From Coriobacteriia bacterium (GTDB lineage: Bacteria; Actinomycetota; Coriobacteriia; Anaerosomatales; JAAXUF01), in NCBI GenBank assembly GCA_013334745.1, contig JAAXWY010000011.1:1-55640 (forward strand): a DNA stretch of 55,640 nucleotides, written 5' to 3'. The translations under genes were made by a program, and so were the position numbers. The notes under the pieces are model-generated. The model worked only from the letters and a program-made list of their open reading frames with translations. It was not told the DNA's origin and ran no database searches. Below are positions 5,614 to 20,884 of this stretch, piece by piece. The first letter of the stretch is position 1, and every line of letters begins with the position of its first letter.

Positions 5614-5961
5614 ATGAAGATGTTCCGTAAGGACGAGGGCTTCACACTCGTGGAACTCATGGTCGTCGTGCTCATTATCGGTATTCTTGTTGCTATCGCT
5701 ATTCCGGTCTTCAATGCTGCAAAGGCCAACGCCCAGAAGAAGTCGTGCTTCGCGAACCAGCGCACGATCGAGGGTGCGGCACAGACCTACGCCGCCGACA
5801 ACGACGGTACGCTTCCTGCAAGCCCGGCTGCGCTGACGCCGACCTACATCAAGGTCGCGCCGTTCTGCCCGGCTGACGCCTCGAAGGCCGCGTACTCGTT
5901 CGGTACGAGTGGCACCGTCGCTGCTTGCGGCTACGGGGATCCGGTTCACGGTCACTTCTAG
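5614..5961 (+). CDS. pilA: Type IVa major pilin (prepilin).
   Basis: Class III signal: MKMFRKDEG|FTLVELMVVV, with G at -1, F at +1 and E at +5. Hydrophobic alpha1 helix. C-terminal Cys pair (D-region). Strong RBS GGAGGTG. Length 115 aa. Confidence 0.85.
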   Translation: MKMFRKDEGFTLVELMVVVLIIGILVAIAIPVFNAAKANAQKKSCFANQRTIEGAAQTYAADNDGTLPASPAALTPTYIKVAPFCPADASKAAYSFGTSGTVAACGYGDPVHGHF

Positions 5962-6123: not shown

Positions 6124-6924
6124 ATGTGTGCCTTCGCGTTCGGGCTCATCTTCGGCTCGTTCGGCAACGTCGTGATCTGGCGGTTTCCGAGAGGCGAGTC
6201 ACTGTCGACACCCGGCTCGCATTGCCCCGTGTGCGACACCGCCATCGCCTGGTATGACAACGTCCCCGTTCTTTCGTGGATGCTGCTGCGCGGACGTTGC
6301 CGTGCGTGTGGGACGAAGATCTCTGCACGATATCCGGCAGTCGAGCTGCTGACCGGTGTTCTATGGCTTCTGGCGGCCATCCAGTTCGGCCCGACGGTCC
6401 AAGCTGGCTTCTGCGCCGCGTTCTTCTACCTTCTGGTGCTTCTGGCATTCATCGACTTGGACATAAAGCGTCTGCCCAACCCGCTTGTCGGGCTGCTCGC
6501 GCTCATCGGTGCGGTAGGCGTCGGGCTCTCACTCTTCGGTATCCCGGCGGCTCCGCTCATCGGTCCGGGCGGCGGGGTCTTGTCAAACCCGGCCGCGTTC
6601 GCTGTCGCGGGTTCGCTCTCGTCTGCAGGGCTCGTTCTGTTCATCGCACTTGCGTATCAGAAGGTGCGTGGCGTGGACGGATTCGGGATGGGAGACGTCA
6701 AACTGCTCGGGGCGATCGGTCTGTTCCTCGGCCCATATGCGCTGCTGACACTCTTCATCGGAAGCCTCATCGGGGCGGTGTATGGCTTGATCTCGGCTCG
6801 GACTTCACCGGATGGGCTGCGAAACACGTTTCCGTTCGGGCCTGCTCTGGCGGCCTCGGCCGTGATTGTGACGTTTGTCGGCGTGCCCCTCGTCGCTTGG
6901 TACCTGCACATCCTCACGTTCTAG
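6124..6924 (+). CDS. pilD: Prepilin peptidase and N-methyltransferase, A24 family.
   Basis: Zinc-binding CPVCDTAIAWYDNVPVLSWMLLRGRCRACG (C-x-x-C...C-x-x-C). Polytopic membrane protein. Length 266 aa. Confidence 0.85.
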   Translation: MCAFAFGLIFGSFGNVVIWRFPRGESLSTPGSHCPVCDTAIAWYDNVPVLSWMLLRGRCRACGTKISARYPAVELLTGVLWLLAAIQFGPTVQAGFCAAFFYLLVLLAFIDLDIKRLPNPLVGLLALIGAVGVGLSLFGIPAAPLIGPGGGVLSNPAAFAVAGSLSSAGLVLFIALAYQKVRGVDGFGMGDVKLLGAIGLFLGPYALLTLFIGSLIGAVYGLISARTSPDGLRNTFPFGPALAASAVIVTFVGVPLVAWYLHILTF

Positions 6925-7051: not shown

Positions 7052-7411
7052 ATGCAGAAGTGCACAGCAGACGAGGGATTCACACTCCTCGAGATCATGG
7101 TCATCGTACTCATCGTCGGGATTCTTGTGGGGATCGCCATTCCGGTACTCGGCGCCGCCAAGGCCAACGCCCAGATGAAGTCGTGTTGGGCGAACCAGCG
7201 CTCCATCGAGGGCGCAGCGCAGACGTACGCGTCCGTGAACGGCGCAATGCCTGCCGGAGGTGCGGTTGACGGCGCAGGATGGGCGGTTCCCGTGTACATC
7301 GCTGAAGCGCCGATATGTCCGTGCGACGCCGCGATGAACCCGTATGAGATCGATGACCAGGGCACGGTAGTCAGTTGCTCGATGGGAGCGCCGGCCCACC
7401 AGCACTACTAA
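7052..7411 (+). CDS. Second type IVa pilin, paralog of pilA1.
   Basis: MQKCTADEG|FTLLEIMVIV, with G at -1, F at +1 and E at +5. RBS GGAGG is 8 nt upstream. Shares ANQR[ST]IEGAAQTYA and the C-terminal CPxD...HxH[FY] motifs with pilA1. Confidence 0.85.
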   Translation: MQKCTADEGFTLLEIMVIVLIVGILVGIAIPVLGAAKANAQMKSCWANQRSIEGAAQTYASVNGAMPAGGAVDGAGWAVPVYIAEAPICPCDAAMNPYEIDDQGTVVSCSMGAPAHQHY

Positions 7412-7659: not shown

Positions 7660-8799
7660 TTGAGGGAGGACGCGTTGGCCCCGGTATCGTTCGGTGCCGC
7701 ACTACCGCCTGTCGGTCTGGACATCGGGACCGACTTCATCCGCGCCGCGCAGATCAAGGCCGGCGGTGCTTCGCATTCACTGACCGCGTACGGGATTGCG
7801 CCGATGCCTTTCGGTGCGGTCGTTGAAGGCGAAGTCGTGGATCCCGAAGCCGTTTCCGCGGCCATCAAGGAGTTGTGGCACCGCAGCGGCGTGCGCAACA
7901 AGTCGGTTGCTGTCGGGGTCTCGAACCAGAAGGTCGTCGTTCGCCTAGTCGACCTGCCGTACATGGAGCGCGCCGAACTCGCGGGTGCGATTCAGTACCA
8001 AGCCCAAGACTACATCCCGATTCCGATCGAGGAAGCGATCATCGACTTCCAGATCATCGGTGACTACATGACCCCGGCTGACGAGCACATGATGGAAGTT
8101 CTCCTCGTCGCGGCCCAGCGGGACATGATCGGCAACATCGTCTCCGCGGTCGAAGGCGCCGGTCTTCAGCTCGCGCAGGTCGACGTCACGGCATTCGCGC
8201 TGGTTCGCGCCCTGCTGGGGGCCACCCCTAAGTGGCTCTCCGAGGAGGCCGAGAACCCGGCTGAGGCCGTGGGTATCGTCCACATCAGTTCCGGGCTGAC
8301 GAACATCGCGGTCGTGGAGCGTGGGCTTCCGCGTTTCACTCGCGTGTCATCGCTTGCCGCAAACCAGTTCACGCAAGCGATTGCCAACGTCATGAATCTG
8401 ACGTTTGACGAAGCCGAGAACCTTAAGGCCAGGGCGGGGCTGCCCGATATCGATCAGCCGGCCGAGTCGCACCCGGATCTCGATGCCGCCACGCTCTCCG
8501 CGGTGCAGGATGCGCTCGAGCGCGAAGCGAACAAGTTCATCGCCGAGGTTCGCAGGTCATTTGACTACTATCTCACCCAGGCCGTGCAGGTTCGAAGCAT
8601 CGGTCGGATCTACCTCACAGGCACCGGGGCCGAGCTTCGGAACCTGCCCGTGTACCTCGGACGCGGTCTCCAGACCGAGGTCGTGCTGGGGGACGCGCTG
8701 GCCGGGTTGCAGATGAGCGGCTCAGTCGAGTCCTCCGTGCTGCCGGATCGCGCGGGCTGTGCTGCAGCGATCGGCTTGGCGCTGGGAGGGGTGGTGTAG
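7660..8799 (+). CDS. pilM: Type IV pilus assembly protein PilM, an actin-like ATPase fold protein.
   Basis: LDIGTDFIRAAQ N-terminal sugar-kinase/actin fold motif. The stop abuts the pilN ATG. The true start may be the TTG at 7675, which follows a GGGAGG RBS. Confidence 0.85.
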   Translation: MREDALAPVSFGAALPPVGLDIGTDFIRAAQIKAGGASHSLTAYGIAPMPFGAVVEGEVVDPEAVSAAIKELWHRSGVRNKSVAVGVSNQKVVVRLVDLPYMERAELAGAIQYQAQDYIPIPIEEAIIDFQIIGDYMTPADEHMMEVLLVAAQRDMIGNIVSAVEGAGLQLAQVDVTAFALVRALLGATPKWLSEEAENPAEAVGIVHISSGLTNIAVVERGLPRFTRVSSLAANQFTQAIANVMNLTFDEAENLKARAGLPDIDQPAESHPDLDAATLSAVQDALEREANKFIAEVRRSFDYYLTQAVQVRSIGRIYLTGTGAELRNLPVYLGRGLQTEVVLGDALAGLQMSGSVESSVLPDRAGCAAAIGLALGGVV

Positions 8800-9441
8800 A
8801 TGCTTCGCATCAACCTGCTCCCTCGGGAGGTACTTGATCGCCAGAGGTTCCAAGGCTGGTACAGGTACGTCTTCATCATCACGCTTGGTCTCGTGCTCAT
8901 CGTTCTGCTCGTTGCGGCCGGCCTCTACTTCTCCGTGCAGCAGAAGAGCGATGAGTTGCAGTCAGCCAAGGATCGAGCGCAGCAGTACGCCGAACAGGGC
9001 AAGGCGTTCGACGTGTTTGAGAAGAAGGAGCAGGAGCTCACCGACCGACAGGCGATCGTCCAGACGGCGTTGGCCGGTCGTTTCAACTTCGGTCGTGTGG
9101 TCGAAGAGGTGTCCCTCGTTCTTCCCGACGAGGTGTGGCTCGATTCAATGAGTGTCGACCAGGCCAACGGACTGTCGATGGTCGCCAACACGCCTCGGTC
9201 GAGCAGCCAAAGCATGAATGTCGCCTACAAGTCGGTCGCAAAGACGCTTGTGCGGCTCAATGAGCTTTCAGAGGTCACCGACGTGTGGCTCACGAATGCA
9301 GCGAATCAGACCTGGAAGAACTGGGATGTATCCAGTTCTATCGACACAGGCACACCCGTGGTTCAGTTCACGGCGTCGGCGAAGTTCTCGCAGAGCACGC
9401 CATCGACCTCGACAGTAGCCCCAACGGGGGGTGCTGAGTGA
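8800..9441 (+). CDS. pilN: Pilus assembly protein PilN, bitopic.
   Basis: MLRINLLPRE N-terminus, a single TM helix and a coiled-coil periplasmic region. Tandem with pilM. Confidence 0.8.
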   Translation: MLRINLLPREVLDRQRFQGWYRYVFIITLGLVLIVLLVAAGLYFSVQQKSDELQSAKDRAQQYAEQGKAFDVFEKKEQELTDRQAIVQTALAGRFNFGRVVEEVSLVLPDEVWLDSMSVDQANGLSMVANTPRSSSQSMNVAYKSVAKTLVRLNELSEVTDVWLTNAANQTWKNWDVSSSIDTGTPVVQFTASAKFSQSTPSTSTVAPTGGAE

Positions 9442-10052
9442 TGTCCATCTCTCCTCGTGATCGTCTGGTCATCACCATTGTCGCGGCCGTACTTGTACTC
9501 GTCGCCCTGATTGCAGCGCTTGTGTACCCGCAGTTTCAGCAGGTGCGCAAGCTCAACACGCAGGTCATTGAGGCTGAAGCACAGGCCGACGCCGCAAAGC
9601 TCCAACTCGAGCAGCGGCAGGGCTTCAAGGACCGCGCGATCGAAACCAACGCCAAGTGGCTTGGGCTCATGAATGAGGTTCCCGAGACGCCCGACCTGCC
9701 CTCGCTCATTATCGAGCTGCAGGACTCCGCATACGAGAGCGGCGTTCAGGTCATCAGCGTCACTCCGACACAGCCCACTCAGCTGACGGGGTATGCCGCA
9801 GTGCCGATCTCGATCGAGGTGCTTGGGACGTGGGCGGATACCGTCGACTACCTGCAGTCACTGATGAAGTTGGATCGCGGTGTCCGGGTCGTCGGTACGA
9901 ACGTGACTGTGGCCGGAAGCGGGGCACTGCCTGAGCGCCGAAACTCCAAGGTGCCTGCGTATGCGGTGAGCTCTGTGATTTCAATTGAGACGTATCTGAT
10001 CCCTGCCGCGGTCGAGACCGCGACTCCGTCCGCGACTTCGACTGCACAGTAG
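9438..10052 (+). CDS. pilO: Pilus assembly protein PilO.
   Basis: ATGA overlap with pilN. N-terminal TM helix plus coiled coil and a C-terminal ferredoxin-like region. Position in the operon. Confidence 0.8.
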   Translation: MMSISPRDRLVITIVAAVLVLVALIAALVYPQFQQVRKLNTQVIEAEAQADAAKLQLEQRQGFKDRAIETNAKWLGLMNEVPETPDLPSLIIELQDSAYESGVQVISVTPTQPTQLTGYAAVPISIEVLGTWADTVDYLQSLMKLDRGVRVVGTNVTVAGSGALPERRNSKVPAYAVSSVISIETYLIPAAVETATPSATSTAQ

Positions 10053-10062
10053 GGGAGGGAAC

Positions 10063-10680
10063 ATGGCCGACAACACGAATGGGCAGCCGCCGGTGGGACC
10101 AGATCAGAAGCCTGCCTCGGCGACTTCAGGCTTTCTCTCCTCCACCGCTGGCAAGCTCGTGGTCGGCGGTGTGCTGTTGTTCTTGGTGCTGATTGCGGTA
10201 GGCGCTCTCGCGTTCTTCTTCCTCTTCGGTTCCGCCGCTCAGAAGGTTGCTCCTAGCTCCTCGACCACCGCCACAGCTCCGTCCAACCCGGCGACCGAGG
10301 GCATCGTACCCACGGACCCGCCTGAGCAGCCGCTGGACGAGACATTCACCTTCCGCAACGTCTTTGCGCCCACGGTCACGCCCGCACAGTCGAGTACGGA
10401 CGCCGATTCCGGTAGCGGCGGCTCGAGTGGCGACACATCACCAACGGCGAGCGGCGCGACCGACACCCTCATCCTGAAGTCGATTCACACGGACTCGGGT
10501 GAGCGAGTCGCGACGTTCGAGTGGAACGGCGCGGTGTACGAGTGCCGTGAGGGCGACCAGGTCGCCCAATCGCCATGGGAGGTCGTGACCATCTACTCCG
10601 ATTCCGTCGTCATGTTGTACGGCGACAGTCGAATCACCCTCACCGTGGGCCAGGGCTACACCGGATCCTGGGACAAGTAG
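10063..10680 (+). CDS. PilP-like protein: TM anchor, an S/T/P-rich linker and a C-terminal beta-domain.
   Basis: The C-terminal domain LILKSIHTDSGERVATFEWNGAVYECREGDQV...VVTIYSDSVVMLYGDSRITLTVGQ resembles the PilP beta-sandwich pattern. Position directly after pilO. Confidence 0.5.
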   Translation: MADNTNGQPPVGPDQKPASATSGFLSSTAGKLVVGGVLLFLVLIAVGALAFFFLFGSAAQKVAPSSSTTATAPSNPATEGIVPTDPPEQPLDETFTFRNVFAPTVTPAQSSTDADSGSGGSSGDTSPTASGATDTLILKSIHTDSGERVATFEWNGAVYECREGDQVAQSPWEVVTIYSDSVVMLYGDSRITLTVGQGYTGSWDK

Positions 10681-10760: not shown

Positions 10761-11912
10761 ATGCGTTACGAGACTGCAGGCGAATCCCATGGGCGGGCGC
10801 TCACCGCGATCGTCACTGATGTGCCCGCGGGAATCCCTATCGACACTGACGCCATAGACCGTGATCTTGCGCGCCGTCAAGGCGGCTACGGTCGAGGTGG
10901 CCGGCAGCGCATCGAGACCGATCGCGCGACGATCCTTTCGGGTGTTCGGTTCGGCAAGACCATTGGAAGCCCGGTTGCGCTGGCTGTGGCGAATCGGGAC
11001 TTTGAGAACTGGCTTGATGTCATGAGTACCTCAGGCGTGCGCCCTGACGGGATTCGCGAGACGCACCCACGTCCGGGACATGCCGACCTGGCAGGCGTGC
11101 TGAAGATCGGATCGGACGACGCCCGAGACATCCTTGAACGTGCGAGCGCGCGCGAGACGGCCGCGCGCGTCGCGGCGGGTGGTGTCGCGAAGGCGCTCCT
11201 GAGTGCCATGGGTGTGTCGGTGAGATCCTACGTCGAGGCTATCGGCGGGGTGGTCATGCCCCTGGTCGACGATCCATCGACAGTCGATCCCGAGGTCGTC
11301 GAGTCAAGCGCCGTTCGATGCCCGGACCCTGACGCCACGGAGTCCATGAAGGCACGCATAGACTCAGCCCGCGCTGATGGCGAGTCGCTGGGTGGGGTGT
11401 TCGTGGTGACCGCTACCGGGCTCGTCCCAGGCCTTGGATCGTACGCCGAGGCGATGCGTCGTCTCGATGCACGGCTTGCAGGTGCTGTGATCTCGATTCC
11501 TGCGATCAAGGGCGTCGAGTTCGGTCTGGGGTTTGCGGCCGCGGCGGTGCCCGGTAGCCAGGCCCATGACGAGATTCATCACGATGCCGAGAGCGGCTTT
11601 CATCGGCCAACGAACCGTGCCGGCGGACTCGAAGGCGGCATGACGAACGGTGAGCCGCTCGTCGTGCGCGCCGCGATGAAGCCGATTCCGACCTTGATGC
11701 GCCCTCTCGCGAGCGTGGATCTCGATAGCCTTGAGCCGGTGGACGCGAGCAAGGAGCGCAGCGACATCTGTGCGGTCCCGGCGGCGGCCGTCGTGGGTGA
11801 GGCCGAGGTCGCGATCGTGCTGGCAACCGCCTACATGGAGAAGTTCGGTGGGGACTGCCTTGAGGACATGCTCGTAGCGCGTGATGCCTACCTCTCCCGG
11901 ATCAGCCGATGA
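10761..11912 (+). CDS. aroC: Chorismate synthase.
   Basis: MRYETAGESHGRALTAIV N-terminus and a full-length 383 aa product. Confidence 0.9.
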   Translation: MRYETAGESHGRALTAIVTDVPAGIPIDTDAIDRDLARRQGGYGRGGRQRIETDRATILSGVRFGKTIGSPVALAVANRDFENWLDVMSTSGVRPDGIRETHPRPGHADLAGVLKIGSDDARDILERASARETAARVAAGGVAKALLSAMGVSVRSYVEAIGGVVMPLVDDPSTVDPEVVESSAVRCPDPDATESMKARIDSARADGESLGGVFVVTATGLVPGLGSYAEAMRRLDARLAGAVISIPAIKGVEFGLGFAAAAVPGSQAHDEIHHDAESGFHRPTNRAGGLEGGMTNGEPLVVRAAMKPIPTLMRPLASVDLDSLEPVDASKERSDICAVPAAAVVGEAEVAIVLATAYMEKFGGDCLEDMLVARDAYLSRISR

Positions 11913-13537
11913 GTCACGTATTCCTGATCGGGTTCATGGGCGCCGGCAAGTCGACGGTTGGTCCTCTCGTGGCTGAGCGACTGGGTCGGCCGTTCATCGA
12001 CCTGGACGAAGTAGTCGCGGGGCAGCAGGGCCGAGAAATCGTCGAGATCTTCGAGGGTGATGGCGAAGCGGCGTTTCGCGCCTTCGAGCTCGAGGCCCTT
12101 GGGTCGATCGCGGACCGTTGTGACTCAGTGGTCGCATGCGGGGGCGGTCTTGTCACGATGCCGACGTCTGTCACGCGCATGCGCAAGCTTGGAACCGTGG
12201 TCCATCTTGTTACGACTGCCGATGAGGCTCTCAAGCGAATTGCTGATCCGTCGACGCGACCACTTCTCGCGGGTGAGAACCCTGAGTTGGCCGCGCGGTC
12301 GTTGTTGGACTCAAGACGCGAACTCTACGCAGCCGCAGCGGACTACGAGGTCGACACTGTGGGTCGGCCTATTGCTGAGGTCGTGGATGAGGTGGTGCTG
12401 CGTGTTGCATCGGCGCCCCGGCGCGGCCGACCGGTTGTCGTCCCGGTCAAGGTCGGCGAGATGCCGTATGAGGTGGTCATCGGGCCGGGTGTCCTCGAGG
12501 ATGCTGGGGCGCTGCTGCGCATCGGTGCGCCAACGGCCGGGCGAATTGCGCTTGTCACTGACACGACGGTCGGAGACCTGTTCGGTCTTACGGTGGAGCG
12601 AAAGCTCATCGAAGAAGGCTACGCGGTTCATCCCCTCGCTGTAGCTCCGGGTGAAGACTCCAAGAACTGGGCCGTGGCTGGGGAGATCCTTGAGGCACTG
12701 GCGGAACTGCGCTTCGAGCGGACTGACTTCGTGGTCGCGCTCGGCGGCGGCGTAGTCGGCGACCTAGCCGGCTTTGTGGCGGCGACCTACCTGCGCGGGA
12801 TTGGCTTTGCTCAGGTTCCAACCACTCTGCTCGCGCAAGTCGACTCATCCGTTGGCGGCAAGACCGGTGTGGACCTCAAAGCCGGCAAGAACCTGGCAGG
12901 CGCCTTCAAACAGCCTACAATTGTGATAGCGGACACAAATACTCTGGAGTTGTTGCCGCAGAGCGAATGGCGCAGTGGAACCGCCGAAGTGGCGAAGAGC
13001 GCAGTTGTAGACGGTGAGGAGTTCTTCAGCTGGCTCGAGGCCGCCGCTGAGCGGTTCGTTTCCAGGGATGAACGGACGATTATCGAGGCAGTTTCTCGGT
13101 GCGTCAGGTTCAAGGCGAGCGTCGTATCTGCCGATGAAACCGAGGTAGGACCGCGCGAGTGTTTGAACTACGGACACACGCTCGGGCATGCGATCGAGAA
13201 GGTTGCCGGTTACGGCGCGGTTCCGCACGGGATCGCGGTCGCGGAGGGCATGCGATTTGCGGCGAGACTCTCGGTCGAGGTTTCGGGTGGGAGCAGGGAG
13301 TTCGTCGCGAGGCAGGATGCCATCCTCGATACCCTCGGATTGGGAGCGATGACAGAGGCGCTGGATCCGCAATTGGTGCTTGAGGCAATGCATTCCGACA
13401 AGAAGGCACGAGGTGGAACGGTGCGATTCGTACTGGTGGAAGCTCCAGGAACGTGGAGGTGCGAGCCGATCGCGGACGCCGTGATCGCCGAGCACCTCGA
13501 CGCTTGGTTGGAGTCGAAGGTCAGGAGGACGCCATGA
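11909..13537 (+). CDS. Bifunctional shikimate kinase and 3-dehydroquinate synthase (AroK-AroB fusion).
   Basis: N-terminal [16 protein letters not shown]-loop (AroK, about 165 aa) fused to a DHQ synthase domain ([11 protein letters not shown]..., metal-binding His residues). ATGA overlap with aroC. Confidence 0.85.
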
Positions 13538-13968
13538 CGCGCGTACTTGTGCTCAACGGGCCCAACCTGAACCTTCTTGGCACGCGTGAGCCTGAGGTTT
13601 ACGGCTCCACAAGCCTCGCCGGTATCGAGTCCGACTTGAACGACCTCGCTCGCGAACTCGGCGTCGAGGTCGCGTTCGTGCAGAGCAACCACGAGGGCGA
13701 GCTGATCGACGCGGTTCAGCAGGCGGAGGGCACGTTTTCCGCGATTGTGTTCAATCCCGGAGCGTTCACGCACTACTCGTACGCACTGCGCGATGCAGTC
13801 GCGGCGATAGCGATTCCGGTCGTAGAGGTTCATCTGTCCAACATTTCCGCCCGTGAGGACTTCCGGAGAGAGAGTGTTATCGCGCCGGTGTGCGCGGGTC
13901 AGGTCAGCGGGTTTGGTACCGCATCGTACGCACTTGGGTTGCGCGCGGCCGCCAAACTGGTGAGCTAG
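13534..13968 (+). CDS. aroQ: Type II 3-dehydroquinate dehydratase.
   Basis: [24 protein letters not shown] is the canonical AroQ N-terminus. ATGA overlap with the aroKB stop. RBS AGGAGG. Confidence 0.9.
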
Positions 13969-14008
13969 CGCGTGTGTGAAGGGCACGGCTACGCAGCGGT
14001 GTGCGGCG

Positions 14009-14017
14009 TAGAATGGG
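14009..14017 (+). promoter_or_regulatory. Candidate -10 element TAGAATGGG upstream of the modular pilin gene.
   Basis: The same 9-mer as at 6071. It lies about 20 nt upstream of the ATG at 14035. Confidence 0.25.
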
Positions 14018-14034
14018 TAGAGGGAAGTGGCACG

Positions 14035-16062
14035 ATGATGGGGCTGAAGCGGTTCATGAAGAGTGACACTGGCTTCACTGTGGTGGAGTTCGTTATCGCT
14101 GCGGTGATTCTCTTCATGGTGTCCACGAGTGTGATGGGCGTGATCGCCTACGCCGGCACCGCGAATGCAGCGAACGCGATGCGGCAGAGCGGGCTTGAAC
14201 TTGCGAATCTCCGTATGGAACAGGCGCGCAACCTGTCGTACTCGAAACTTGGGACCGCGAGCGGCATTCCGACGGGCACCATCGAAACGCCTGAGATCGT
14301 CACGGTTCCCACAGCCGCCGGAGACCGCAGTTTCACGGTGGTTACCGACGTGGGTTGGGTGTGGGATGCTGACGGGTACTCGACCGACAAGAAGGTCACC
14401 ATCACTGTCTCGTGGACGTACCCGCGAGAGGCCAGTGTGACCCTGGAGTCGGCAGTCGTCGGAGAGGCCACCGGCAACACGGGCGACGTGTACGTCTACG
14501 TCGTGGACTCTGACACCAGCGACCCCGTACCGGGCGCCACTATCACGATCAAGCCGACCGCTTCGCCGACCGTCTCGGCGACGACTGGCTCGGCAGGTTA
14601 TGTACGTTGGGGAAAGGTGCCCACAGGCTCTATCGTCATAACGGGTACCTGCTCGACTCACTACCTTGATATGTCACCCGTCTCGGGCGCTACTGTGATT
14701 GCGAACCAGAAGAATATCTGGACCGTCCAGGGCGTTCGAGCAAGCAGCGGCACAGTTCACGTCACCGACAACTCGGGAAATCCGTTGCCCGGAGTTGCCG
14801 TGACAATCACGGGCCCGGCCGGATCAGCTGACTGGAGCTGTCCATCGGGAACCGGTACGGCCGTCTCGGATGAGAATGGTGACGCGTTTTTTGAGAAGTT
14901 GCGCAAAGGGACGTACACCGTCAGCGGCACCCTCAGCGGGTACAGCAAGAAGACGCCGGTGGACAACCTTGTCGTCGTCGCGGGTGGTAGCGCCTACACG
15001 AGTTCGCTTGTCATGAACCGCCTGACCACCCTGAAGGTCACGGTCAAGGACGCCAGCAACAACGCGATTCAAGGCGCTACTTGTACCGCGACAGGCGTCA
15101 CCTTCGGCGCTACGACCGATTCTCTCGGCCAGGCCACCAGCAACGACATGGGGGCCATCGGCACGAACAGGTCCTATACGGTCAGCGTCGCCAAGGCGGG
15201 ATACATCACCAACACGGGTACCGTCACGATGAGCCAGTACACCCAAGGTGAGGTCACCGTAGTCCTCTCGCCGCAGCCACCGACTACGATTCGGGTCACC
15301 GTCACCGATACCAGCGGAGTACCCATATCGGGCGCGACGTGCTCGGCGACGGGAGGGACGACGGTCGTATTCGCGTCGCTGACCGATGCGAACGGCGTCG
15401 CAACGAGCAATAACATGGGTGCCATCGGTACGGGCAAGACATATACCGTGACGGCCGCGAAGACGGGCTGGACGAGCAAGACGGGGACAGTGACCCTGAG
15501 CGAATACACGCAGGGGACGCTCACTATCCAGCTCTCGCCACCGGCACCGACCACGATCAAGGTGACCGTCACCAACAACACCGGGACGGCTCAGAAGGTC
15601 GTCGGTGCCACCATCACCGCCACCGGCCCGTCAACCGTGACGTTCCCGGCCGTCACCGACTCCAACGGCCAGGCGACCAGCAACAACATGGGTGCAATCG
15701 GCACGAACAAGACGTACACGGTGCGGTCGGTAAAGAGTGGATGGGTCACCACGACGGGCAACGTCACGCTTTCCGAGTACACGCAGGGAACGCTGACGAT
15801 CAAGATGCGCGCCACCCTTGAAGTGCTCTACAACGGCACGTACCCCCGTACGATCTACGTCTACACGAGCAGCACCCCGGGTGCGACCCATGCGTACACT
15901 CAGATAGCTCAGTCCGCCACGATTCCCGCCTCGTTCAATCTCCCGAGCGGCACCTACTGGGTGAGTCGACGTACCCCGTACGGCGGATCCGGTGCAGTGC
16001 CTCAGCCGCAGGTCGTGACGGACGGCGCGCTCAAGGCCGTCACGGCCCAGTCGAGCTGGTAG
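14035..16062 (+). CDS. Large modular type IV pilin-like protein, about 675 aa. A prepilin N-terminus is followed by five Ig-like/carboxypeptidase-regulatory-like beta-sandwich repeats.
   Basis: MMGLKRFMKSDTG|FTVVEFVIAAV, with G at -1, F at +1 and E at +5. RBS GAGGGAAG. Three well-conserved ~87-aa tandem repeats, preceded by two more divergent ones. S/T/G-rich composition. Confidence 0.75.
   Translation: MMGLKRFMKSDTGFTVVEFVIAAVILFMVSTSVMGVIAYAGTANAANAMRQSGLELANLRMEQARNLSYSKLGTASGIPTGTIETPEIVTVPTAAGDRSFTVVTDVGWVWDADGYSTDKKVTITVSWTYPREASVTLESAVVGEATGNTGDVYVYVVDSDTSDPVPGATITIKPTASPTVSATTGSAGYVRWGKVPTGSIVITGTCSTHYLDMSPVSGATVIANQKNIWTVQGVRASSGTVHVTDNSGNPLPGVAVTITGPAGSADWSCPSGTGTAVSDENGDAFFEKLRKGTYTVSGTLSGYSKKTPVDNLVVVAGGSAYTSSLVMNRLTTLKVTVKDASNNAIQGATCTATGVTFGATTDSLGQATSNDMGAIGTNRSYTVSVAKAGYITNTGTVTMSQYTQGEVTVVLSPQPPTTIRVTVTDTSGVPISGATCSATGGTTVVFASLTDANGVATSNNMGAIGTGKTYTVTAAKTGWTSKTGTVTLSEYTQGTLTIQLSPPAPTTIKVTVTNNTGTAQKVVGATITATGPSTVTFPAVTDSNGQATSNNMGAIGTNKTYTVRSVKSGWVTTTGNVTLSEYTQGTLTIKMRATLEVLYNGTYPRTIYVYTSSTPGATHAYTQIAQSATIPASFNLPSGTYWVSRRTPYGGSGAVPQPQVVTDGALKAVTAQSSW
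15031..15813 (+). repeat. Three tandem ~261-nt coding repeats. Each contains ...(I/L)(K/R)VTV(K/T)D...GATC(T/S)ATG...SNNMGAIGT(N/G)(K/R)(T/S)YTV...SEYTQGTLTI...
   Basis: Direct comparison of translated segments. The DNA copies are diverged to roughly 70% identity, so the duplication is not recent. Confidence 0.7.
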
Positions 16063-16071
16063 GCGAGGACA

Positions 16072-16728
16072 ATGCGATTCCTCGATGATGACAGCGGTCT
16101 GACCCTTACGGAGTTCTTGATCGTCGCGATGCTGATCTCTGTGATCATCACGGCGTCGTACTTCATGTTCAATGCCGCCGCCTCGATGACTGATCAGACG
16201 ACGGCGCGCGCCTACGCACAGGACGAGGCACAGCGCGCGGTCGACCGGATGACGCGCGATCTGCGGCAGTCGATGCAGGACACGAGCGACAACAACGGCG
16301 TTGTGCGGATCGCCGAGGCGAGCCAACTGAAGTTCTCAGCGGATGTCAATGCGGACATGAAGCCGGAGATGATCCGCTATTACATCGAGGGGAACTCGCT
16401 GAAGCGCACGGTGGCGCTCCCGACAACCTCTGAGGTTCCCTATAGCTACGGGAGTCCGGGTGCGCCCACGATACTGATCAAGAAGCTGGGAACGTCGGCT
16501 GGAACGATGTTCTGCTATCACAGCGTCGACCGCAACACGACCGTCTATTGCGGGCCCATCAAGCATGGATTCAACGTGGTCACCACGACCGACCCGTTTA
16601 ACACGACACCCAAGATCTCCATGATCGGAGTGAAGTTGGACACGGTGGGCGAATCCGGCTCCAAGACAGTCACTGTCACCAGCCGGGTGATGGTTCGCAT
16701 CCGCACAGTAGAGAATCGGGTTGATTAG
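16072..16728 (+). CDS. Minor pilin or pseudopilin with a prepilin-type N-terminal cleavage/methylation domain.
   Basis: MRFLDDDSG|LTLTEFLIVAMLISVII, with G at -1 and E at +5. Length 218 aa. Located 9 nt after the modular pilin stop. Confidence 0.7.
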   Translation: MRFLDDDSGLTLTEFLIVAMLISVIITASYFMFNAAASMTDQTTARAYAQDEAQRAVDRMTRDLRQSMQDTSDNNGVVRIAEASQLKFSADVNADMKPEMIRYYIEGNSLKRTVALPTTSEVPYSYGSPGAPTILIKKLGTSAGTMFCYHSVDRNTTVYCGPIKHGFNVVTTTDPFNTTPKISMIGVKLDTVGESGSKTVTVTSRVMVRIRTVENRVD

Positions 16729-16729
16729 C

Positions 16730-18073
16730 ATGAAGGCGCAGACTCGCTTCGATCGTTTGCGGAGCGCGGCCTCTGACGACAGAGGCATGGCGCTCGCGGT
16801 TGTCCTCATCATGTCGGCAGTGCTCTTCCTGCTGGCCACGACGCTGCTGATGGTGGTCTCGTACCGCGGCAATCAAACCGTCTCGGGCGAGAAGCACAAT
16901 CAGGCGATGCACGTCGCCGAGGCCGGGATCAACGAGTACATGTATCAGCTCAGTGTCGACTACGGCTACTGGCAGACCCACGAGACCCTCGGGCCTGTGA
17001 ACACGGAGGACGGACAGTGGCTCGTCACCCGGAGCCAGAACTCGTCGGACGTGGTCATCCTCACATCAGTCGGGACGCTGAACGACGGTACCGAGCGTAC
17101 CGTGCGTGCATCCGTCAGCTTCCCGAGCTGGGCGAAGTACATCGTCTGCGTCGATCAGGGTCCGTACAGCATCGGCGCCGGCGCCACGTTCTACGGCGAC
17201 GTCCACTGCAATGAGGGTATCAGCAACTCCGGGGTGATTACGGGTAGGGCCACAGCCGGGCTGGGGGCAAACTGCACCTGGGGTACGTCGGCGGCCGCAA
17301 ACTATCCTGGTGGCTATAAGAACAACTACAAGAACATCGACTTCAGCCAGCTCACCTACGACCTCGCTCAGATGAAGTCTACGGCGCAGGCCGAGTCGAC
17401 GTACAAGGCCGCTTCAGGCTTCCTTGGCTACCAAGCGGTGATCAATGGTGCCACGGTGACCATCACCAAGATCCAGGCGATAAACAAGAACCTGCCAAGA
17501 ACCGGCTACCCGAGCGACCCGCTGCTTGGTGCGATCACCACCACCGGCACAGCCGAGGTCTACGCGATTCCGCACAGCGGCGTCTTCTTCTTCGACGACA
17601 ACGTGTGGGTCACGGGGAACTACTCCGCGTCGGTCACGTTCGCCACGAGCAAGAACGTTTACTGCCCGGGCAACATCACCCCCACGACGAGCGGTGCCAA
17701 TGTGACGTGTGGGCTTGTCGCACAGCTGCAGGTGCTGTTCCCGTGGTGGTACCAGACGATGCCCGACGACCAGATGGTCCAGGCTGCGTGTTTGTCGCAG
17801 ACGGCCGGTGTCGGCCCCGAGGCGCCATCAGGGTTGAAGAAGTACAACACGACGACCAAGGCGTGGACCGACACGCTGACACTCGGTTCCTCTGACTACA
17901 AGAACTCCGTCACGCTCAAGGGCGCACGTGCCATGGTTCAGATGATCGGATTCTCGTCGGGCTACACAATCCGAAACTTCGACCGCGATCCGGTGCTGGC
18001 GAACAACCCGCCGCCGCTCTACCCCAAGCTGACCGGCGAGAGCCTGCAGATCGACACGTGGCAGGAGCTCTAG
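16730..18073 (+). CDS. PilX_N-like pilus assembly/minor pilin protein with a C-terminal S/T/G/N-rich beta-rich domain.
   Basis: The N-terminus ...ERGMALAVVLIMSAVLFLLATTLLMVV...HNQAMHVAEAGINE matches the PilX N-terminal pattern (G, then a hydrophobic helix, then ...AEAG...). There is no E at +5. The ATG is 1 nt after the previous stop. Confidence 0.6.
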   Translation: MKAQTRFDRLRSAASDDRGMALAVVLIMSAVLFLLATTLLMVVSYRGNQTVSGEKHNQAMHVAEAGINEYMYQLSVDYGYWQTHETLGPVNTEDGQWLVTRSQNSSDVVILTSVGTLNDGTERTVRASVSFPSWAKYIVCVDQGPYSIGAGATFYGDVHCNEGISNSGVITGRATAGLGANCTWGTSAAANYPGGYKNNYKNIDFSQLTYDLAQMKSTAQAESTYKAASGFLGYQAVINGATVTITKIQAINKNLPRTGYPSDPLLGAITTTGTAEVYAIPHSGVFFFDDNVWVTGNYSASVTFATSKNVYCPGNITPTTSGANVTCGLVAQLQVLFPWWYQTMPDDQMVQAACLSQTAGVGPEAPSGLKKYNTTTKAWTDTLTLGSSDYKNSVTLKGARAMVQMIGFSSGYTIRNFDRDPVLANNPPPLYPKLTGESLQIDTWQEL

Positions 18074-18092
18074 GTCGTATCGGTCGCGCCGT

Positions 18093-18102
18093 GGCGTAGA
18101 AT
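18093..18102 (+). promoter_or_regulatory. Candidate -10 element GGCGTAGAAT about 9 nt upstream of the pepQ GTG. This would make the mRNA leaderless or short-leader.
   Basis: TAGAAT at 18097..18102. The ORF GTG is at 18111 and an internal ATG is at 18138. Confidence 0.25.
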
Positions 18103-18110
18103 CTCGGCAG

Positions 18111-19229
18111 GTGCCACGGCGGCGAAGGGGCGGCTTGATGGTCGCGGTTGATGCTCGACTTGAGGCTTTGCGGGTGCTGATGCACGATGCAGCGCTCGGC
18201 GCGATGGTCGTGTGGTCGGTACCCAACGTGTCTTATCTCACGGGGTTCATCGGCGTATGGGACGAGGAACCGGCCGCGTTGCTCGCGGTAACCGACTCGG
18301 AATCCGTTGTATTCACCGACTCCCGGTATCTAGAGTCCGCACGGGCGGCTGCGCTCGAAGGCCCGTGGGACGTTCGCCTCGTCGTCGACGATCAGTGGAG
18401 TGAGGCGCTGGCTGTCGCTGTCGGCGCCGGCGCGACGCGTGTCGCCGTCGAATCAACGATGCCGTATGCGACCGTGGAGGGCGCCCGCGAGCGCTTCGAA
18501 GGCGACATCGTACCGACGGCGGGACTGGTTGAACGACTCCGCGCCTCGAAGGACGCCAACGAGATCGAGCTCATCGGGCAGGCCCAGGCGATCACGGACG
18601 CGGCGTTTGATCACGTGCTCGGCTTCGTGAGGCCCGGGATGACCGAGCGTGAGGTGGCGCTCGAGCTTGAGTTCCACATGCGCGCCACGGGCTCGGATGG
18701 GATAGCGTTTCCACCCATCGTCGCAAGCGGCCCGAACTCAGCGCTCCCTCATGCGCATCCGAGTGCACGGGAGATCGTGGCAGGCGACTTCCTCAAGATG
18801 GACTTCGGTGCCCGCGTTGGCGGCTACTGTGCCGACATGACGCGAACCGTGGTGGTTGGTACTGCGAGCGCGCGTCAGCGGGAGATCTACCAAGCGGTGC
18901 TGGCTGCCAACGCTGCGGGGCTGGCAGCCGTTGCCGAGGGTGTGGCCTGTGCGGGAGTGGATAAGGCAGCGCGTGATGTGCTTGCCGCGGCAGGGTATGG
19001 CGACTACTTCGGGCACGGGCTCGGGCACGGACTTGGCCTCGAGATCCATGAGCAGCCGTCGGTTGGCGCCCGGAGTACTCACACGCTTGCGGTAGGCAAC
19101 GTCGTCACCATCGAACCCGGTGCCTACCTGCCTGGTTTCGGCGGTGTTAGAATCGAGGACTTGGTGGTGGTCGACGCGGGCGGAGCGCGCGTGCTGACCA
19201 CCTCGACGAAGGATCTTATCGAACTGTGA
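18111..19229 (+). CDS. Xaa-Pro aminopeptidase or dipeptidase, M24B family.
   Basis: Creatinase-N-like N-terminal half. C-terminal pita-bread fold with the metal ligands D...D...H...E...E (DFGARVGGYCADMTRT, HGLGHGLG, IEPG). Conserved aroQ-pepQ-efp synteny. Confidence 0.85.
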   Translation: MPRRRRGGLMVAVDARLEALRVLMHDAALGAMVVWSVPNVSYLTGFIGVWDEEPAALLAVTDSESVVFTDSRYLESARAAALEGPWDVRLVVDDQWSEALAVAVGAGATRVAVESTMPYATVEGARERFEGDIVPTAGLVERLRASKDANEIELIGQAQAITDAAFDHVLGFVRPGMTEREVALELEFHMRATGSDGIAFPPIVASGPNSALPHAHPSAREIVAGDFLKMDFGARVGGYCADMTRTVVVGTASARQREIYQAVLAANAAGLAAVAEGVACAGVDKAARDVLAAAGYGDYFGHGLGHGLGLEIHEQPSVGARSTHTLAVGNVVTIEPGAYLPGFGGVRIEDLVVVDAGGARVLTTSTKDLIEL

Positions 19230-19274: not shown

Positions 19275-19835
19275 ATGCCGGTTACGACCGCCAACTTCAA
19301 GAACGGTATGTGCATCGTCCACGAAGGCAAGCGCTGGGTCATCATCGAGTTCCAGCACGTCAAGCCGGGCAAGGGTGGCGCGTTCGTTCGCACCAAGCTC
19401 AAGGAGCTCCAGAGCGGACGCGTGGTCGACTACACGTTCCGCGCCGGCGAGAAGTTCGACGACGTTCGCATCGAGAACAAGAAGATGCAGTACCTCTACA
19501 ACGATGGCGAGACGTTCTACTTCATGGACAACACCTCGTACGAGCAGATCGAGCTCGATGCGGACTTCGTCGGCGAGCAGGCCAAGTGGCTCAAGGACAA
19601 CGACGAGGTCGAGATCATGACCGCGGATGGCGAGTACATGGGGGTCGAGCCGCCGATGTTCGTCGAGCTCGAGGTCACCGAGACTGACCCCGGCTTCAAG
19701 GGCGACACGGTTCAGGGTGGCACCAAGCCTGCCACGCTTGAGACCGGCGCGGTCGTTCAGGTCCCGATGTTCATCAACACGGGCGAGAAGCTGCGGATCG
19801 ACACGCGCGACGGGCGCTACATCACCCGGGTCTAG
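19275..19835 (+). CDS. efp: Elongation factor P.
   Basis: MPVTTANFKNGMCIVHEGKRWVIIEFQHVKPGKGGAFVRTKLK, including the conserved KPGKG loop. RBS GGGAGA. The ORF-track start at 19245 is probably an upstream over-extension. Confidence 0.9.
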   Translation: MPVTTANFKNGMCIVHEGKRWVIIEFQHVKPGKGGAFVRTKLKELQSGRVVDYTFRAGEKFDDVRIENKKMQYLYNDGETFYFMDNTSYEQIELDADFVGEQAKWLKDNDEVEIMTADGEYMGVEPPMFVELEVTETDPGFKGDTVQGGTKPATLETGAVVQVPMFINTGEKLRIDTRDGRYITRV

Positions 19836-20884
19836 TGCCTGCAGCGAATAGCCGCATCGATTTCATCGACTTCGGTAAGGGTCTGTCGATCCTGAGCGTC
19901 GTGTTGTTCCACTATGCCGACGCGTCGGTCGTGGGGCGCTATTCCGCGCTGTTCGGATTCGGGGCGGCGGGTGTGCACGTATTCTTGGTGCTCGCTGGTT
20001 TCGGGCTGTCGTTGTCGCCCCATTCATCGTCTCCGAGCGCGTTCTACCGTCGACGGTTCGTCAAGATTCTGGTCCCGTACTACGTGTTCGTGACAATCGC
20101 CTTTCTCGTGAACCAGGTCCACGCGTACTACCGACATGACGGTGTGTACGCCTATCTCGGCCATCTGTTCTGGTTCAAGATGTTCGACGGGCACATCATC
20201 GGTAGCTTCGGCGGCCAACTCTGGTTCGTCTCGACGATTCTCGCGTTCTACCTGCTGTTTCCGCTGCTTCAGACGGCCCAACTGAGACTCGGGGACGCCC
20301 GTTTCCTGGCGCTCGCCACGGTAGCGTCGGTCGCGTTCTGGATCGGTGTGACGGCGCTCGGCCTCCAAAACGACCACGCGGTGCAACGCTTCTTCCCTCA
20401 GTACCTCTGGGAGTTCTGCGCAGGGATGGTGCTGGCCTCGCTCTATCTGCGCCGCGGCGTCCTGGCGTGGGAGCTGCCGTCGTGGGTGCTCGGGTTCGCG
20501 GTGGTTGCCGGCTATTACGGCGCGGTCGCGGTCTCACAACTGGTGCCGGCGGCAACCCACATGTTCGATGACGTGCCGACGCTGGTCGGATTCGGTGCGG
20601 CCGTCGTGCTTGCCGAGCGAGCGTCGAAGCGGTGGTGGCCGCGACTCCACCGCGCCATGATGGCGCTAGGAGCGGTCTCATTCGAGCTGTTTCTCGTGCA
20701 CATGCTGGTGAAGACGGCGCTCCGGCCCTTGCTCCCGTATGGATCGTCGCTCCCGCTCGCCGTGGTGTGGCTGATCGGGTCGATCGGCGCATCGATAGCG
20801 GTCGCGGTGGTGTTCCGACGGCTTACGCAGCCCATCGTCAGGGCAGCGGAACGCATGCACTCGCCGGCTGCCCCGACCGGGTAG
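19835..20884 (+). CDS. Acyltransferase family 3 (OatA/OafA-like) integral membrane protein.
   Basis: About 10 predicted TM helices. The N-terminal IDFIDFGKGLSILSVVLFHY motif is typical of acyltransferase_3. TAGTG overlap with efp. Confidence 0.7.
   Translation: MPAANSRIDFIDFGKGLSILSVVLFHYADASVVGRYSALFGFGAAGVHVFLVLAGFGLSLSPHSSSPSAFYRRRFVKILVPYYVFVTIAFLVNQVHAYYRHDGVYAYLGHLFWFKMFDGHIIGSFGGQLWFVSTILAFYLLFPLLQTAQLRLGDARFLALATVASVAFWIGVTALGLQNDHAVQRFFPQYLWEFCAGMVLASLYLRRGVLAWELPSWVLGFAVVAGYYGAVAVSQLVPAATHMFDDVPTLVGFGAAVVLAERASKRWWPRLHRAMMALGAVSFELFLVHMLVKTALRPLLPYGSSLPLAVVWLIGSIGASIAVAVVFRRLTQPIVRAAERMHSPAAPTG

Follow-up and report, generated by a model that had tools for sequence, protein, structure and literature searches.

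A probable I-J-K minor-pilin set encoded between aroQ and pepQ downstream of a type IVa pilus locus in a Coriobacteriia genome

Minor pilins of the I, J and K types are common to all type IV filaments, and the conserved tip and priming complex of these filaments is characterised by a minor-pilin operon, by pairing of the I and J subunits and by a bulky K subunit which lacks glutamate 5 (Glu5) and caps the HIJK complex (PMC9934059). Variants of this arrangement have been described in several phyla. In Streptococcus sanguinis, PilABC form a tip complex in which two modular pilins present adhesive modules (PMC8179133, PMC9934059). ComZ of Thermus thermophilus, for which a location at the tip has been argued, is a GspK-like pilin into which a solenoid is inserted (PMC6561018). 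All cyanobacterial PilX homologues share this solenoid-in-pilin architecture and are part of priming sets; PilX1-3 and HpsA have PilV- and PilW-type partners and are proposed to plug the tip without PilY1 (bioRxiv 10.64898/2026.02.12.705559). Among modular pilins, the combination of N_methyl with the CarboxypepD_reg domain PF13620 is one of the 15 most common architectures (PMC8179133). Here we describe three adjacent genes, called P1, P2 and P3, located between aroQ and pepQ on a 55,640-bp contig (GenBank assembly GCA_013334745.1, contig JAAXWY010000011.1; this whole stretch of DNA is called here the window) of the metagenome-assembled genome (MAG) 'Coriobacteriia bacterium', which probably encode the core I-, J- and K-type tip set of the type IVa pilus (T4aP) whose machinery is encoded upstream.

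Prepilin-like N-termini and probable subunit classes of P1, P2 and P3

The three genes (locus tags HGB10_04670/75/80) are separated by 9 nt between P1 and P2 and by 1 nt between P2 and P3. The open reading frames (ORFs) found between aroQ and pepQ agree in number, size and coordinates with a preliminary description of this region made from the sequence alone. Each of the three proteins has 15-30 full-length homologues, 30-64% identical and encoded in the same gene order, so the genes are considered real. The NCBI records call all three products 'hypothetical'. Their predicted features are as follows.

14035-16062, + strand: P1, modular minor pilin of 675 aa (ORF, Pfam)
14479-16050, + strand: P1 beta-sandwich stalk of six CarboxypepD_reg-like units (repeat hidden Markov model, unit protein alignment)
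16072-16728, + strand: P2, minor pilin of 218 aa (ORF, NCBIfam)
16730-18073, + strand: P3, pilin of the GspK/PilX/ComZ class, 447 aa (ORF, structure model)
16787-17128, + strand: P3 pilin module, long alpha1 and four-stranded sheet (model residues 23-136)
17129-18031, + strand: P3 beta-solenoid module, ice-binding-protein-like (model)
18032-18070, + strand: P3 short C-terminal strand (model)

All three proteins start with a short hydrophilic leader ending in glycine that is followed by about 20 hydrophobic residues, the hallmark of class III signal peptides. P1 begins with MMGLKRFMKSDTG/FTVVEF (the slash marks the predicted cleavage site), with a 13-aa leader ending in Gly, P2 with MRFLDDDSG/LTLTEF, and P3 with MKAQTRFDRLRSAASDDRG/MALAVVLIM, with a 19-aa leader ending in DDRG; the corresponding cleavage contexts are ...KSDTG/FTVVEFVIAAVILFMV, ...DDDSG/LTLTEFLIVAMLISVI and ...SDDRG/MALAVVLIMSAVLFLL. 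Gly-1 and Glu+5 are invariant in every P1 and P2 homologue examined (E11 in the P1 alignment, E14 in P2). Regarding the P3 family, the Gly is invariant and the Asp two residues before it nearly invariant in 21 aligned homologues, and at position +5 all 21 have V or T, never Glu. Lack of Glu5 is known as an exception among pilins from the K/PilX/ComGG class. With Pfam N_methyl (PF07963), P1 reached 13.7 bits and P2 16.7 bits, below the gathering cutoff of 21.2, and P3 gave no match; NCBIfam TIGR02532 recognised P2 (16.9 against a cutoff of 16.3) and 16 of the 17 P2 homologues. The earlier view that the locus encodes three pilin-type proteins is thus upheld, by motifs for P1 and P2 and by a prepilin-like N-terminus for P3, and all three would be processed by PilD.

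The NCBI gene models differ from ours at two starts. P1 is started at Met8 (668 aa; 14035-14055 lost), inside the leader; we favour the start at 14035 because an LKRF segment 5' of the GFTVVE motif is conserved in P1 homologues. P3 is started at the Met that follows the conserved Gly (428 aa; 16730-16786 lost), which removes the conserved leader segment. An in-frame TTG at 16721 would make P3 450 aa long.

P1 consists of a pilin module (about aa 14-148) separate from a stalk. When the pilin modules of 14 family members were compared with NCBIfam, ComGE was matched by 14/14 (best 2e-6), GspI by 9/14 (best 7e-7), XpsI by 7/14 and PilV by 6/14 (best 1e-5), and one P1 homologue has been named 'Tfp pilus assembly protein PilV' by JGI. 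The P1 profile searched against PDB sequences found only alpha1 segments of unrelated pilins. The NCBIfam matches are sub-threshold, and they consistently point to the I class (GspI/PilV/ComGE-like) for P1. As for the stalk, Pfam CarboxypepD_reg (PF13620) matched five stretches (E 6.1e-30, 103.9 bits against a cutoff of 32.3), and Big_1 and SpaA are also found above their cutoffs. P1 therefore conforms to the definition of a modular pilin of Raynaud et al. 2021, namely a pilin module joined to domains that are not specific to type IV pili and are detectable by signatures. The preliminary description had rightly proposed a large modular pilin with Ig-like repeats and had counted five of them; a repeat hidden Markov model built from hand-cut units counts six, at aa 149-240, 237-330, 331-413, 417-502, 506-593 and 602-672. 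The P1 orthologues carry 2-6 units and are 476-681 aa long. Units 3-5 are close paralogues, with a mean column identity of 77% in their DNA alignment. Tandem Repeats Finder, run on 13900-18200, reported only trivial repeats of 9-13 nt and no long-period DNA array in P1; since the DNA of units 3-5 has diverged and no such array is left, the duplications that produced the units appear to be old. A self-BLAST of P1 did not report internal repeats.

No Pfam domain is found in P2 past its N-terminus. Within the P2 family, 15/17 members matched GspJ in NCBIfam, 15/17 'Verru_Chthon cassette protein C' and 13/17 HpsC, the best NCBIfam match of P2 being the cyanobacterial pseudopilin HpsC. The P2 profile aligned with alpha1 segments only of PDB sequences, the best, weak match being TTHA1219 from the Thermus competence pilin locus. 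A structure prediction of low confidence adds weak support. On these sub-threshold matches, P2 would be a J-type (GspJ/PilW/HpsC-like) minor pilin.

The class assignment of P3 rests on the missing Glu5 and on the predicted structure. The model, built from 21 sequences, has a mean predicted local distance difference test score (pLDDT) of 87 and a predicted template modelling score (pTM) of 0.71. It shows a helix at residues 20-79 and a sheet of four strands (89-94, 98-106, 112-120 and 125-133), followed by about 300 residues of beta structure with the last strand at 443-449. GspK superposes on the pilin module over 94 residues at 2.4 Å, and in structural comparison P3 matches ComZ best, with 17% sequence identity. 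The modelled fold thus has the elements of a K-type subunit: an alpha1 helix, an antiparallel sheet and a large extra domain. P3 is therefore, in the model, a GspK-like pilin module without Glu5 that carries a triangular solenoid resembling ice-binding proteins ahead of its final strand. The sequence models of K-type subunits (PilX_N and T2SS_GspK) do not recognise it, the match to NF037980 (T2SS_GspK) being restricted to the N-terminal 58 residues, with 15.9 bits where the cutoff is 130. Two marginal matches of the P3 profile to sortase-pilus proteins in the PDB (E ~0.007) were judged chance beta-rich matches and discarded.

Two P3 homologues, P0026 (L012 10001-11845) and P0028 (L013 10001-11827), are 621-624 aa long, and their solenoid region contains about 150 inserted aa, in which Pfam gives weak Reelin_subrepeat-B and galactose-binding-like matches. 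This suggests that the inserts may be lineage-specific ligand-binding additions at the tip, which would fit an exposed role. Among 1.84 billion cluster representatives, the P3 profile found 3,319 relatives at E<=1e-3, 180 of them reaching E<=1e-30; they are common in metagenomes, and 10 distant relatives are almost without names or taxonomy.

The trio as the probable tip set of the upstream pilus

The contig carries a single co-directional run of genes from pilB through efp (ORFs, Pfam and NCBIfam). ORFs, motifs and Pfam matches of orthologues identify at one locus the components that define a T4aP, namely a PilB-type ATPase, PilC as the single platform, PilD and PilM-PilN-PilO. The genes around the trio are the following.

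2460-4133, + strand: pilB (ORF)
4160-5380, + strand: pilC (ORF)
5614-5961, + strand: small pilin of 115 aa (ORF; Pfam and NCBIfam)
6124-6924, + strand: pilD (ORF; Peptidase_A24 on orthologous loci, precomputed Pfam)
7052-7411, + strand: second small pilin (ORF; Pfam and NCBIfam)
7660-8799, + strand: pilM (ORF; PilM_2 on orthologous loci, precomputed Pfam)
8800-9441, + strand: pilN (ORF)
9438-10052, + strand: pilO (ORF; PilO on orthologous loci, precomputed Pfam)
10063-10680, + strand: PilP/GspC-like gene, 205 aa (ORF; Pfam and NCBIfam)
10761-11912, + strand: aroC (ORF)
11909-13537, + strand: aroK-aroB fusion, 542 aa (ORF)
13531-13968, + strand: aroQ (Pfam DHquinase_II, E 2.5e-60)
18111-19229, + strand: pepQ (Peptidase_M24, E 1.6e-72)
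ending at 19835, + strand: efp (ORF)

The two small pilins, one on either side of pilD, are paralogous proteins of about 11 kDa that resemble ComGC and GspG. In NCBIfam, ComGC is their best or second best match (2.6e-13 and 2.1e-10), and GspG gives 3.5e-11 and 1.4e-10. In three related loci (L005, L010 and L012) one pilin gene is seen just 5' of pilD, where the stretch analysed ends. A six-frame motif scan of the window recovered four canonical prepilin N-termini, those of the two small pilins, P1 and P2, with P3 as the only further pilin-like protein; no other prepilin gene and no other I, J or K candidate was found. Since just two small pilins of the major type accompany the trio in the window, P1, P2 and P3 are best regarded as the one core minor-pilin set of the system, and the name 'second pilin module' given to them in the preliminary description is not retained.

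Genes of I-, J- and K-type subunits stand in that order in gspI-J-K, pilV-W-X and comGE-F-G, and the profile affinities of P1, P2 and P3 likewise run I, J, K along the trio. The defining features of a tip complex are thus present at this locus or compatible with it, and P1, P2 and P3 are probably the core minor-pilin tip set of the upstream T4aP. This is the best reading of the role that had been proposed for them; formation of a tip trimer, its location, its priming role and its ligand are what we infer from it. According to this model, P1 and P2 would pair in the membrane and would be capped by P3, which lacks Glu5 and would be too bulky to sit beneath another subunit. The trimer would then nucleate polymerisation of the 11-kDa major pilin or pilins by PilB, PilC and PilMNO, and would end up at the distal tip of the filament. 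Two modules would be exposed there: the ice-binding-protein-like solenoid that P3 carries within the C-terminal part of its pilin fold, in the manner of ComZ and cyanobacterial PilX, and, trailing from P1, six CarboxypepD_reg-type beta-sandwiches in a row, a count that ranges between lineages from 2 to 6. The P1 chain and the P3 solenoid would be the likely ligand-binding parts, a surface, a polysaccharide or DNA being the candidate ligands.

Several observations weigh against this assignment. The subclass matches of P1 all lie below curated cutoffs, as do those of P2, and in both cases they mostly cover the N-terminal helix. With P3 as query, Foldseek gave only ice-binding proteins (E ~5e-3, probability 0.96-0.98), neither ComZ nor GspK, and the P3 family profile found no ComZ, GspK or PilX among PDB sequences. 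Pfam PilX_N (PF14341) did not match P3 and matched 1/21 family members at E 0.15; of the PilX_N-type third protein announced in the preliminary description, the PilX/GspK class and the big beta domain are retained, and the PilX_N match is not. No PilT is encoded in the 55,640-nt window, pilB being the only gene for a T2SSE-type ATPase (tblastn). No H-type (GspH/FimU) subunit was identified with confidence; one of the two small pilins may be the H-type adapter, or both may be major subunits. Finally, the trio stands apart from pilMNO by four housekeeping genes and a promoter of its own is conceivable, so that its co-regulation with the machinery is only a possibility.

Display of the P3 solenoid and of the P1 chain at the tip would parallel the S. 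sanguinis PilABC complex, and also the role proposed in cyanobacteria for the PilX solenoid, which would act there in place of PilY1 both as tip plug and as adhesin. In S. sanguinis, however, it is a small, I-like subunit that lacks Glu5, and vWA and lectin modules are borne by the other two, whereas the Glu5-less P3 is bulky and K/ComZ-like and the other module of the trio is a CarboxypepD_reg chain; there is no sequence relationship between the two sets. Compared with GspI-GspJ-GspK of the T2SS (type II secretion system; PDB 3ci0) and with PilV-PilW-PilX of T4aP, the insert of P3 is a beta-solenoid where that of GspK is an alpha-domain, the I subunit is modular and reaches 68 kDa, the locus has no clear H subunit or PilY1, and the host is a monoderm. 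The cyanobacterial PilX/PilV/PilW/FimT sets differ in phylum and envelope and include a FimT-type gene that is missing from the trio, and the likeness of P3 to cyanobacterial PilX is one of architecture. Regarding the PF13620 modular pilins, known from an InterPro survey without functional data (PMC8179133), P1 is distinguished by an I/PilV-like pilin module, by 2-6 copies of the domain and by its place in an I-J-K operon.

Taken together, these comparisons indicate that the trio is most likely a recognisable variant of a known system and not a new kind of machine, both PF13620 modular pilins and solenoid PilX/ComZ proteins having been described already. What is mildly new is the occurrence in Actinomycetota, the I-type subunit as the stalked one and the variable length of the stalk. 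A 2019 review assigns the experimentally studied type IV pili of actinobacteria to the Tad/T4c type (PMC6916266). Knowledge of T4aP in the phylum comes mainly from genome surveys. The present locus would offer a monoderm T4aP that is complete and compact and whose minor-pilin set is clearly delimited to three genes, and would extend to Actinomycetota the solenoid PilX/ComZ architecture known from Thermus and cyanobacteria; the ~3,300 cluster representatives of the P3 family would fit the idea that, outside Proteobacteria, a solenoid-capped K subunit commonly takes the place of PilY1. The differing numbers of P1 domains may also be viewed as a natural experiment on the distance of a tip module from the filament. 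The current picture of type IV filaments is unchanged, and the main use of the locus lies in annotation and as a candidate system for cultivated relatives. A bolder proposal, to which we give little credence, is that uncultured Coriobacteriia and Thermoleophilia of the subsurface share a distinct actinobacterial tip in which an I-type tether of 2-6 domains, whose reach may be up to roughly 20-25 nm, and a solenoid K cap replacing PilY1 together form a long-reach adhesin for insoluble substrates, such as Fe(III) minerals or polysaccharide. Cultivated isolates of OPB41/Anaerosomatales are reported to form pili-like appendages induced by ferrihydrite (PMC9686372), and if the proposal were true such a tip could underlie them, a link that is speculation.

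Competence, secretion and acquisition as alternatives

The first alternative is a more specific version of the tip-set assignment and does not contradict it. The pilus could be a competence (DNA-uptake) pilus, with P3 as a ComZ-type DNA receptor at the tip, P1 and P2 as partners comparable to Thermus PilA2 and PilA3, and the ComGC-like pilins forming a short transformation pilus. Besides ComZ as the top structural match of P3, the small pilins match ComGC, P1 matches ComGE, the best PDB match of the P2 profile comes from the Thermus competence pilin locus, and no pilT is found in the cluster. ComZ binds double-stranded DNA through K98 and K233 and is needed for transformation and not for piliation (PMC6561018). 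However, the likeness of P3 to ComZ is structural only (17% identity), with no sequence-profile match, and the set encoded by pilA1-pilA2-pilA3-comZ-pilA4 of T. thermophilus (ComZ, PDB 6qvi; TTHA1219, PDB 5g23) has no detectable sequence homology to the trio, whose host is a monoderm actinobacterium without a secretin and whose I-type partner has six extra beta-sandwiches, a stalk without counterpart in known competence pili. In cyanobacteria, pili for motility and for adhesion also make use of PilX proteins of the solenoid class (bioRxiv 10.64898/2026.02.12.705559). PilMNO typify T4aP and not the Com systems of Firmicutes, and none of comEA, comEC and dprA was seen among the genes scanned, though no search was aimed at them. 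Mature P3 is acidic, with an isoelectric point (pI) of 5.4 (family median 6.3), which speaks against DNA binding; pI was nevertheless discarded as a test, since the values do not discriminate and ComZ itself is without an obvious basic patch (PMC6561018). A competence pilus is a plausible specialisation, yet on balance we consider it unlikely.

The affinities of P1, P2 and P3 for GspI, GspJ and GspK, in profile and in structure, also allow the trio to be read as the head of a T2SS-like pseudopilus that would act in a monoderm as a short piston pushing matrix or enzyme cargo through the wall. This is very unlikely. The affinities are weak and far below the equivalog cutoffs, and an I subunit of 68 kDa with a stalk and a K subunit of 46 kDa with a solenoid seem made for display and not for a piston of periplasmic length. 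The match of the small pilins to GspG and the GspC/PilP-like protein encoded after pilO would fit a secretion role, and such a role has been proposed for one type IV pilus gene set of Clostridium perfringens (PMC11580942); on the other side, the cluster has no secretin and no GspL-, GspM- or GspF-specific features beyond generic PilMNO and PilC. More generally, the preliminary description had held that grouping of the three proteins with T2SS pseudopilins or with competence pili would speak against a tip role for the upstream pilus. Such grouping is indeed seen, as weak GspI/ComGE, GspJ and GspK/ComZ affinities; it does not refute that role, because sets of I-, J- and K-like minor pilins are common to all type IV filaments and the affinities hence do not discriminate between them (PMC9934059).

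The question of whether the trio is foreign to its position was addressed through related loci, collected by a genome scan with the P3 alignment and by look-ups of single homologues; they come from Coriobacteriia MAGs and a few with other taxon labels. By tblastn mapping, the order pilD-pilM-pilN-pilO-PilP-like-aroC-aroK-aroB-aroQ-P1-P2-P3-pepQ-efp is found in at least nine Coriobacteriia MAG lineages (L002/L006, L003/L004, L005, L008, L009 (partial), L010, L012, L013 and L014). In these syntenic loci P3 is 31-64% identical, as against 85-92% for efp; a P3 identity of 31-35% next to such values for efp, at a conserved position, points to old vertical inheritance. The shikimate genes aroC, aroK-aroB and aroQ (10761-13968, + strand) stand between the pil machinery and the trio here and likewise in the relatives. 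E. coli K-12 has hofM-N-O-P-Q-aroK-aroB, which indicates that the linkage of pilMNO(PQ) to aroK-aroB is ancient; Pseudomonas has the corresponding pilMNOPQ-aroK-aroB. The GC content of the trio (0.60-0.62, flanks 0.62-0.66) is unremarkable and neither mobile-element genes nor repeats were noted at its borders. Recent insertion or horizontal transfer was rejected on the grounds of conserved synteny and ordinary base composition, and the earlier picture of genes inserted or wedged between aroQ and pepQ gives way to one in which this position is, judged from gene order in the relatives, an old inherited arrangement of the clade. The comparison of the aroQ-pepQ junction that the preliminary description had called for thus finds the trio there in at least nine Coriobacteriia MAG loci.

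L011, as well as L015 (Miltoncostaea) and L016, both of them Thermoleophilia MAGs, have the trio in the same order and without aro or pil neighbours. This ability to move as a unit, a possible promoter of its own 5' of P1 and the nearly contiguous order aroD(aroQ)-pepQ-efp-nusB of Mycobacterium tuberculosis, which agrees with the usual actinobacterial order aroQ-pepQ-efp-nusB claimed earlier, would suit an independent, horizontally acquired adhesin cassette that is not needed for the upstream pilus, the core minor pilins being encoded elsewhere; this is most improbable in view of the position kept in divergent lineages, the ordinary composition and borders, the lack of other I, J or K candidates in the window and a Glu5-less capping subunit, the hallmark of a core set, within the trio itself.

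Transcription signals and neighbouring genes

The sequence GGCGTAGAAT occurs at 14005-14014 (+ strand), 21 nt 5' of the P1 start, and again at 18093-18102, 5' of pepQ; these two exact copies lie in the aroQ-P1 and P3-pepQ intergenic gaps. The copy 5' of P1, with TAGAAT at 14009-14014, is a possible -10 box, judged by inference only; it is found only in the window, whereas the pepQ copy is conserved in relatives. A sigma-70 consensus scan did not call the GGCGTAGAAT box, and the counts of the sigma-70 and terminator consensus scan equalled shuffled expectation. The box 5' of pepQ has the form G(C/G)GTAGAATC in the window (18093-18102) and in seven loci (L002, L003, L005, L008, L009, L010 and L012). 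In the relatives a hairpin lies directly after it and overlaps it, for example GAATCCCTCCG...CGGAGGGATTC. The whole looks like a -10 element with a stem in the 5' untranslated region, so that pepQ-efp would be transcribed separately from the trio. A different box, TGCCGATAnnGnAGCGGGAACATAT, is shared between aroQ and P1 by L003, L005, L010 and L012. Rfam gave nothing at gathering thresholds across the whole window, no riboswitch (for example for c-di-GMP) ahead of P1, and in the trio region only a chance match to an internal ribosome entry site (E 0.34).

The PilP/GspC-like protein encoded at 10063-10680 matches GspC (1.4e-5) and PilP (3.7e-4) weakly and is encoded at the same position in all related loci, despite a cluster without a secretin. 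In the system of the monoderm S. sanguinis, PilP is said to be missing. The window, L002 and L013 have aroK and aroB as one fused gene; L003 and L005 have them as two genes, and for L008-L010 and L012 the tblastn match falls into two parts. Downstream of efp, a gene for an Acyl_transf_3 membrane acyltransferase (19835-20884) precedes carboxylase genes; it is missing from the otherwise syntenic L002, L003 and L005, which indicates that it was inserted locally in this genome. Genes of DNA metabolism, recN among them, follow downstream, in ordinary synteny. At the other end of the run, directly 5' of pilB, lies the gene of a small Ras-like GTPase (574-1104; ATP_bind_1 and Ras); on either side of it, within 38-2357, there is an acidic, proline-rich ORF without Pfam match. 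A regulatory tie of this GTPase to the pilus is possible.

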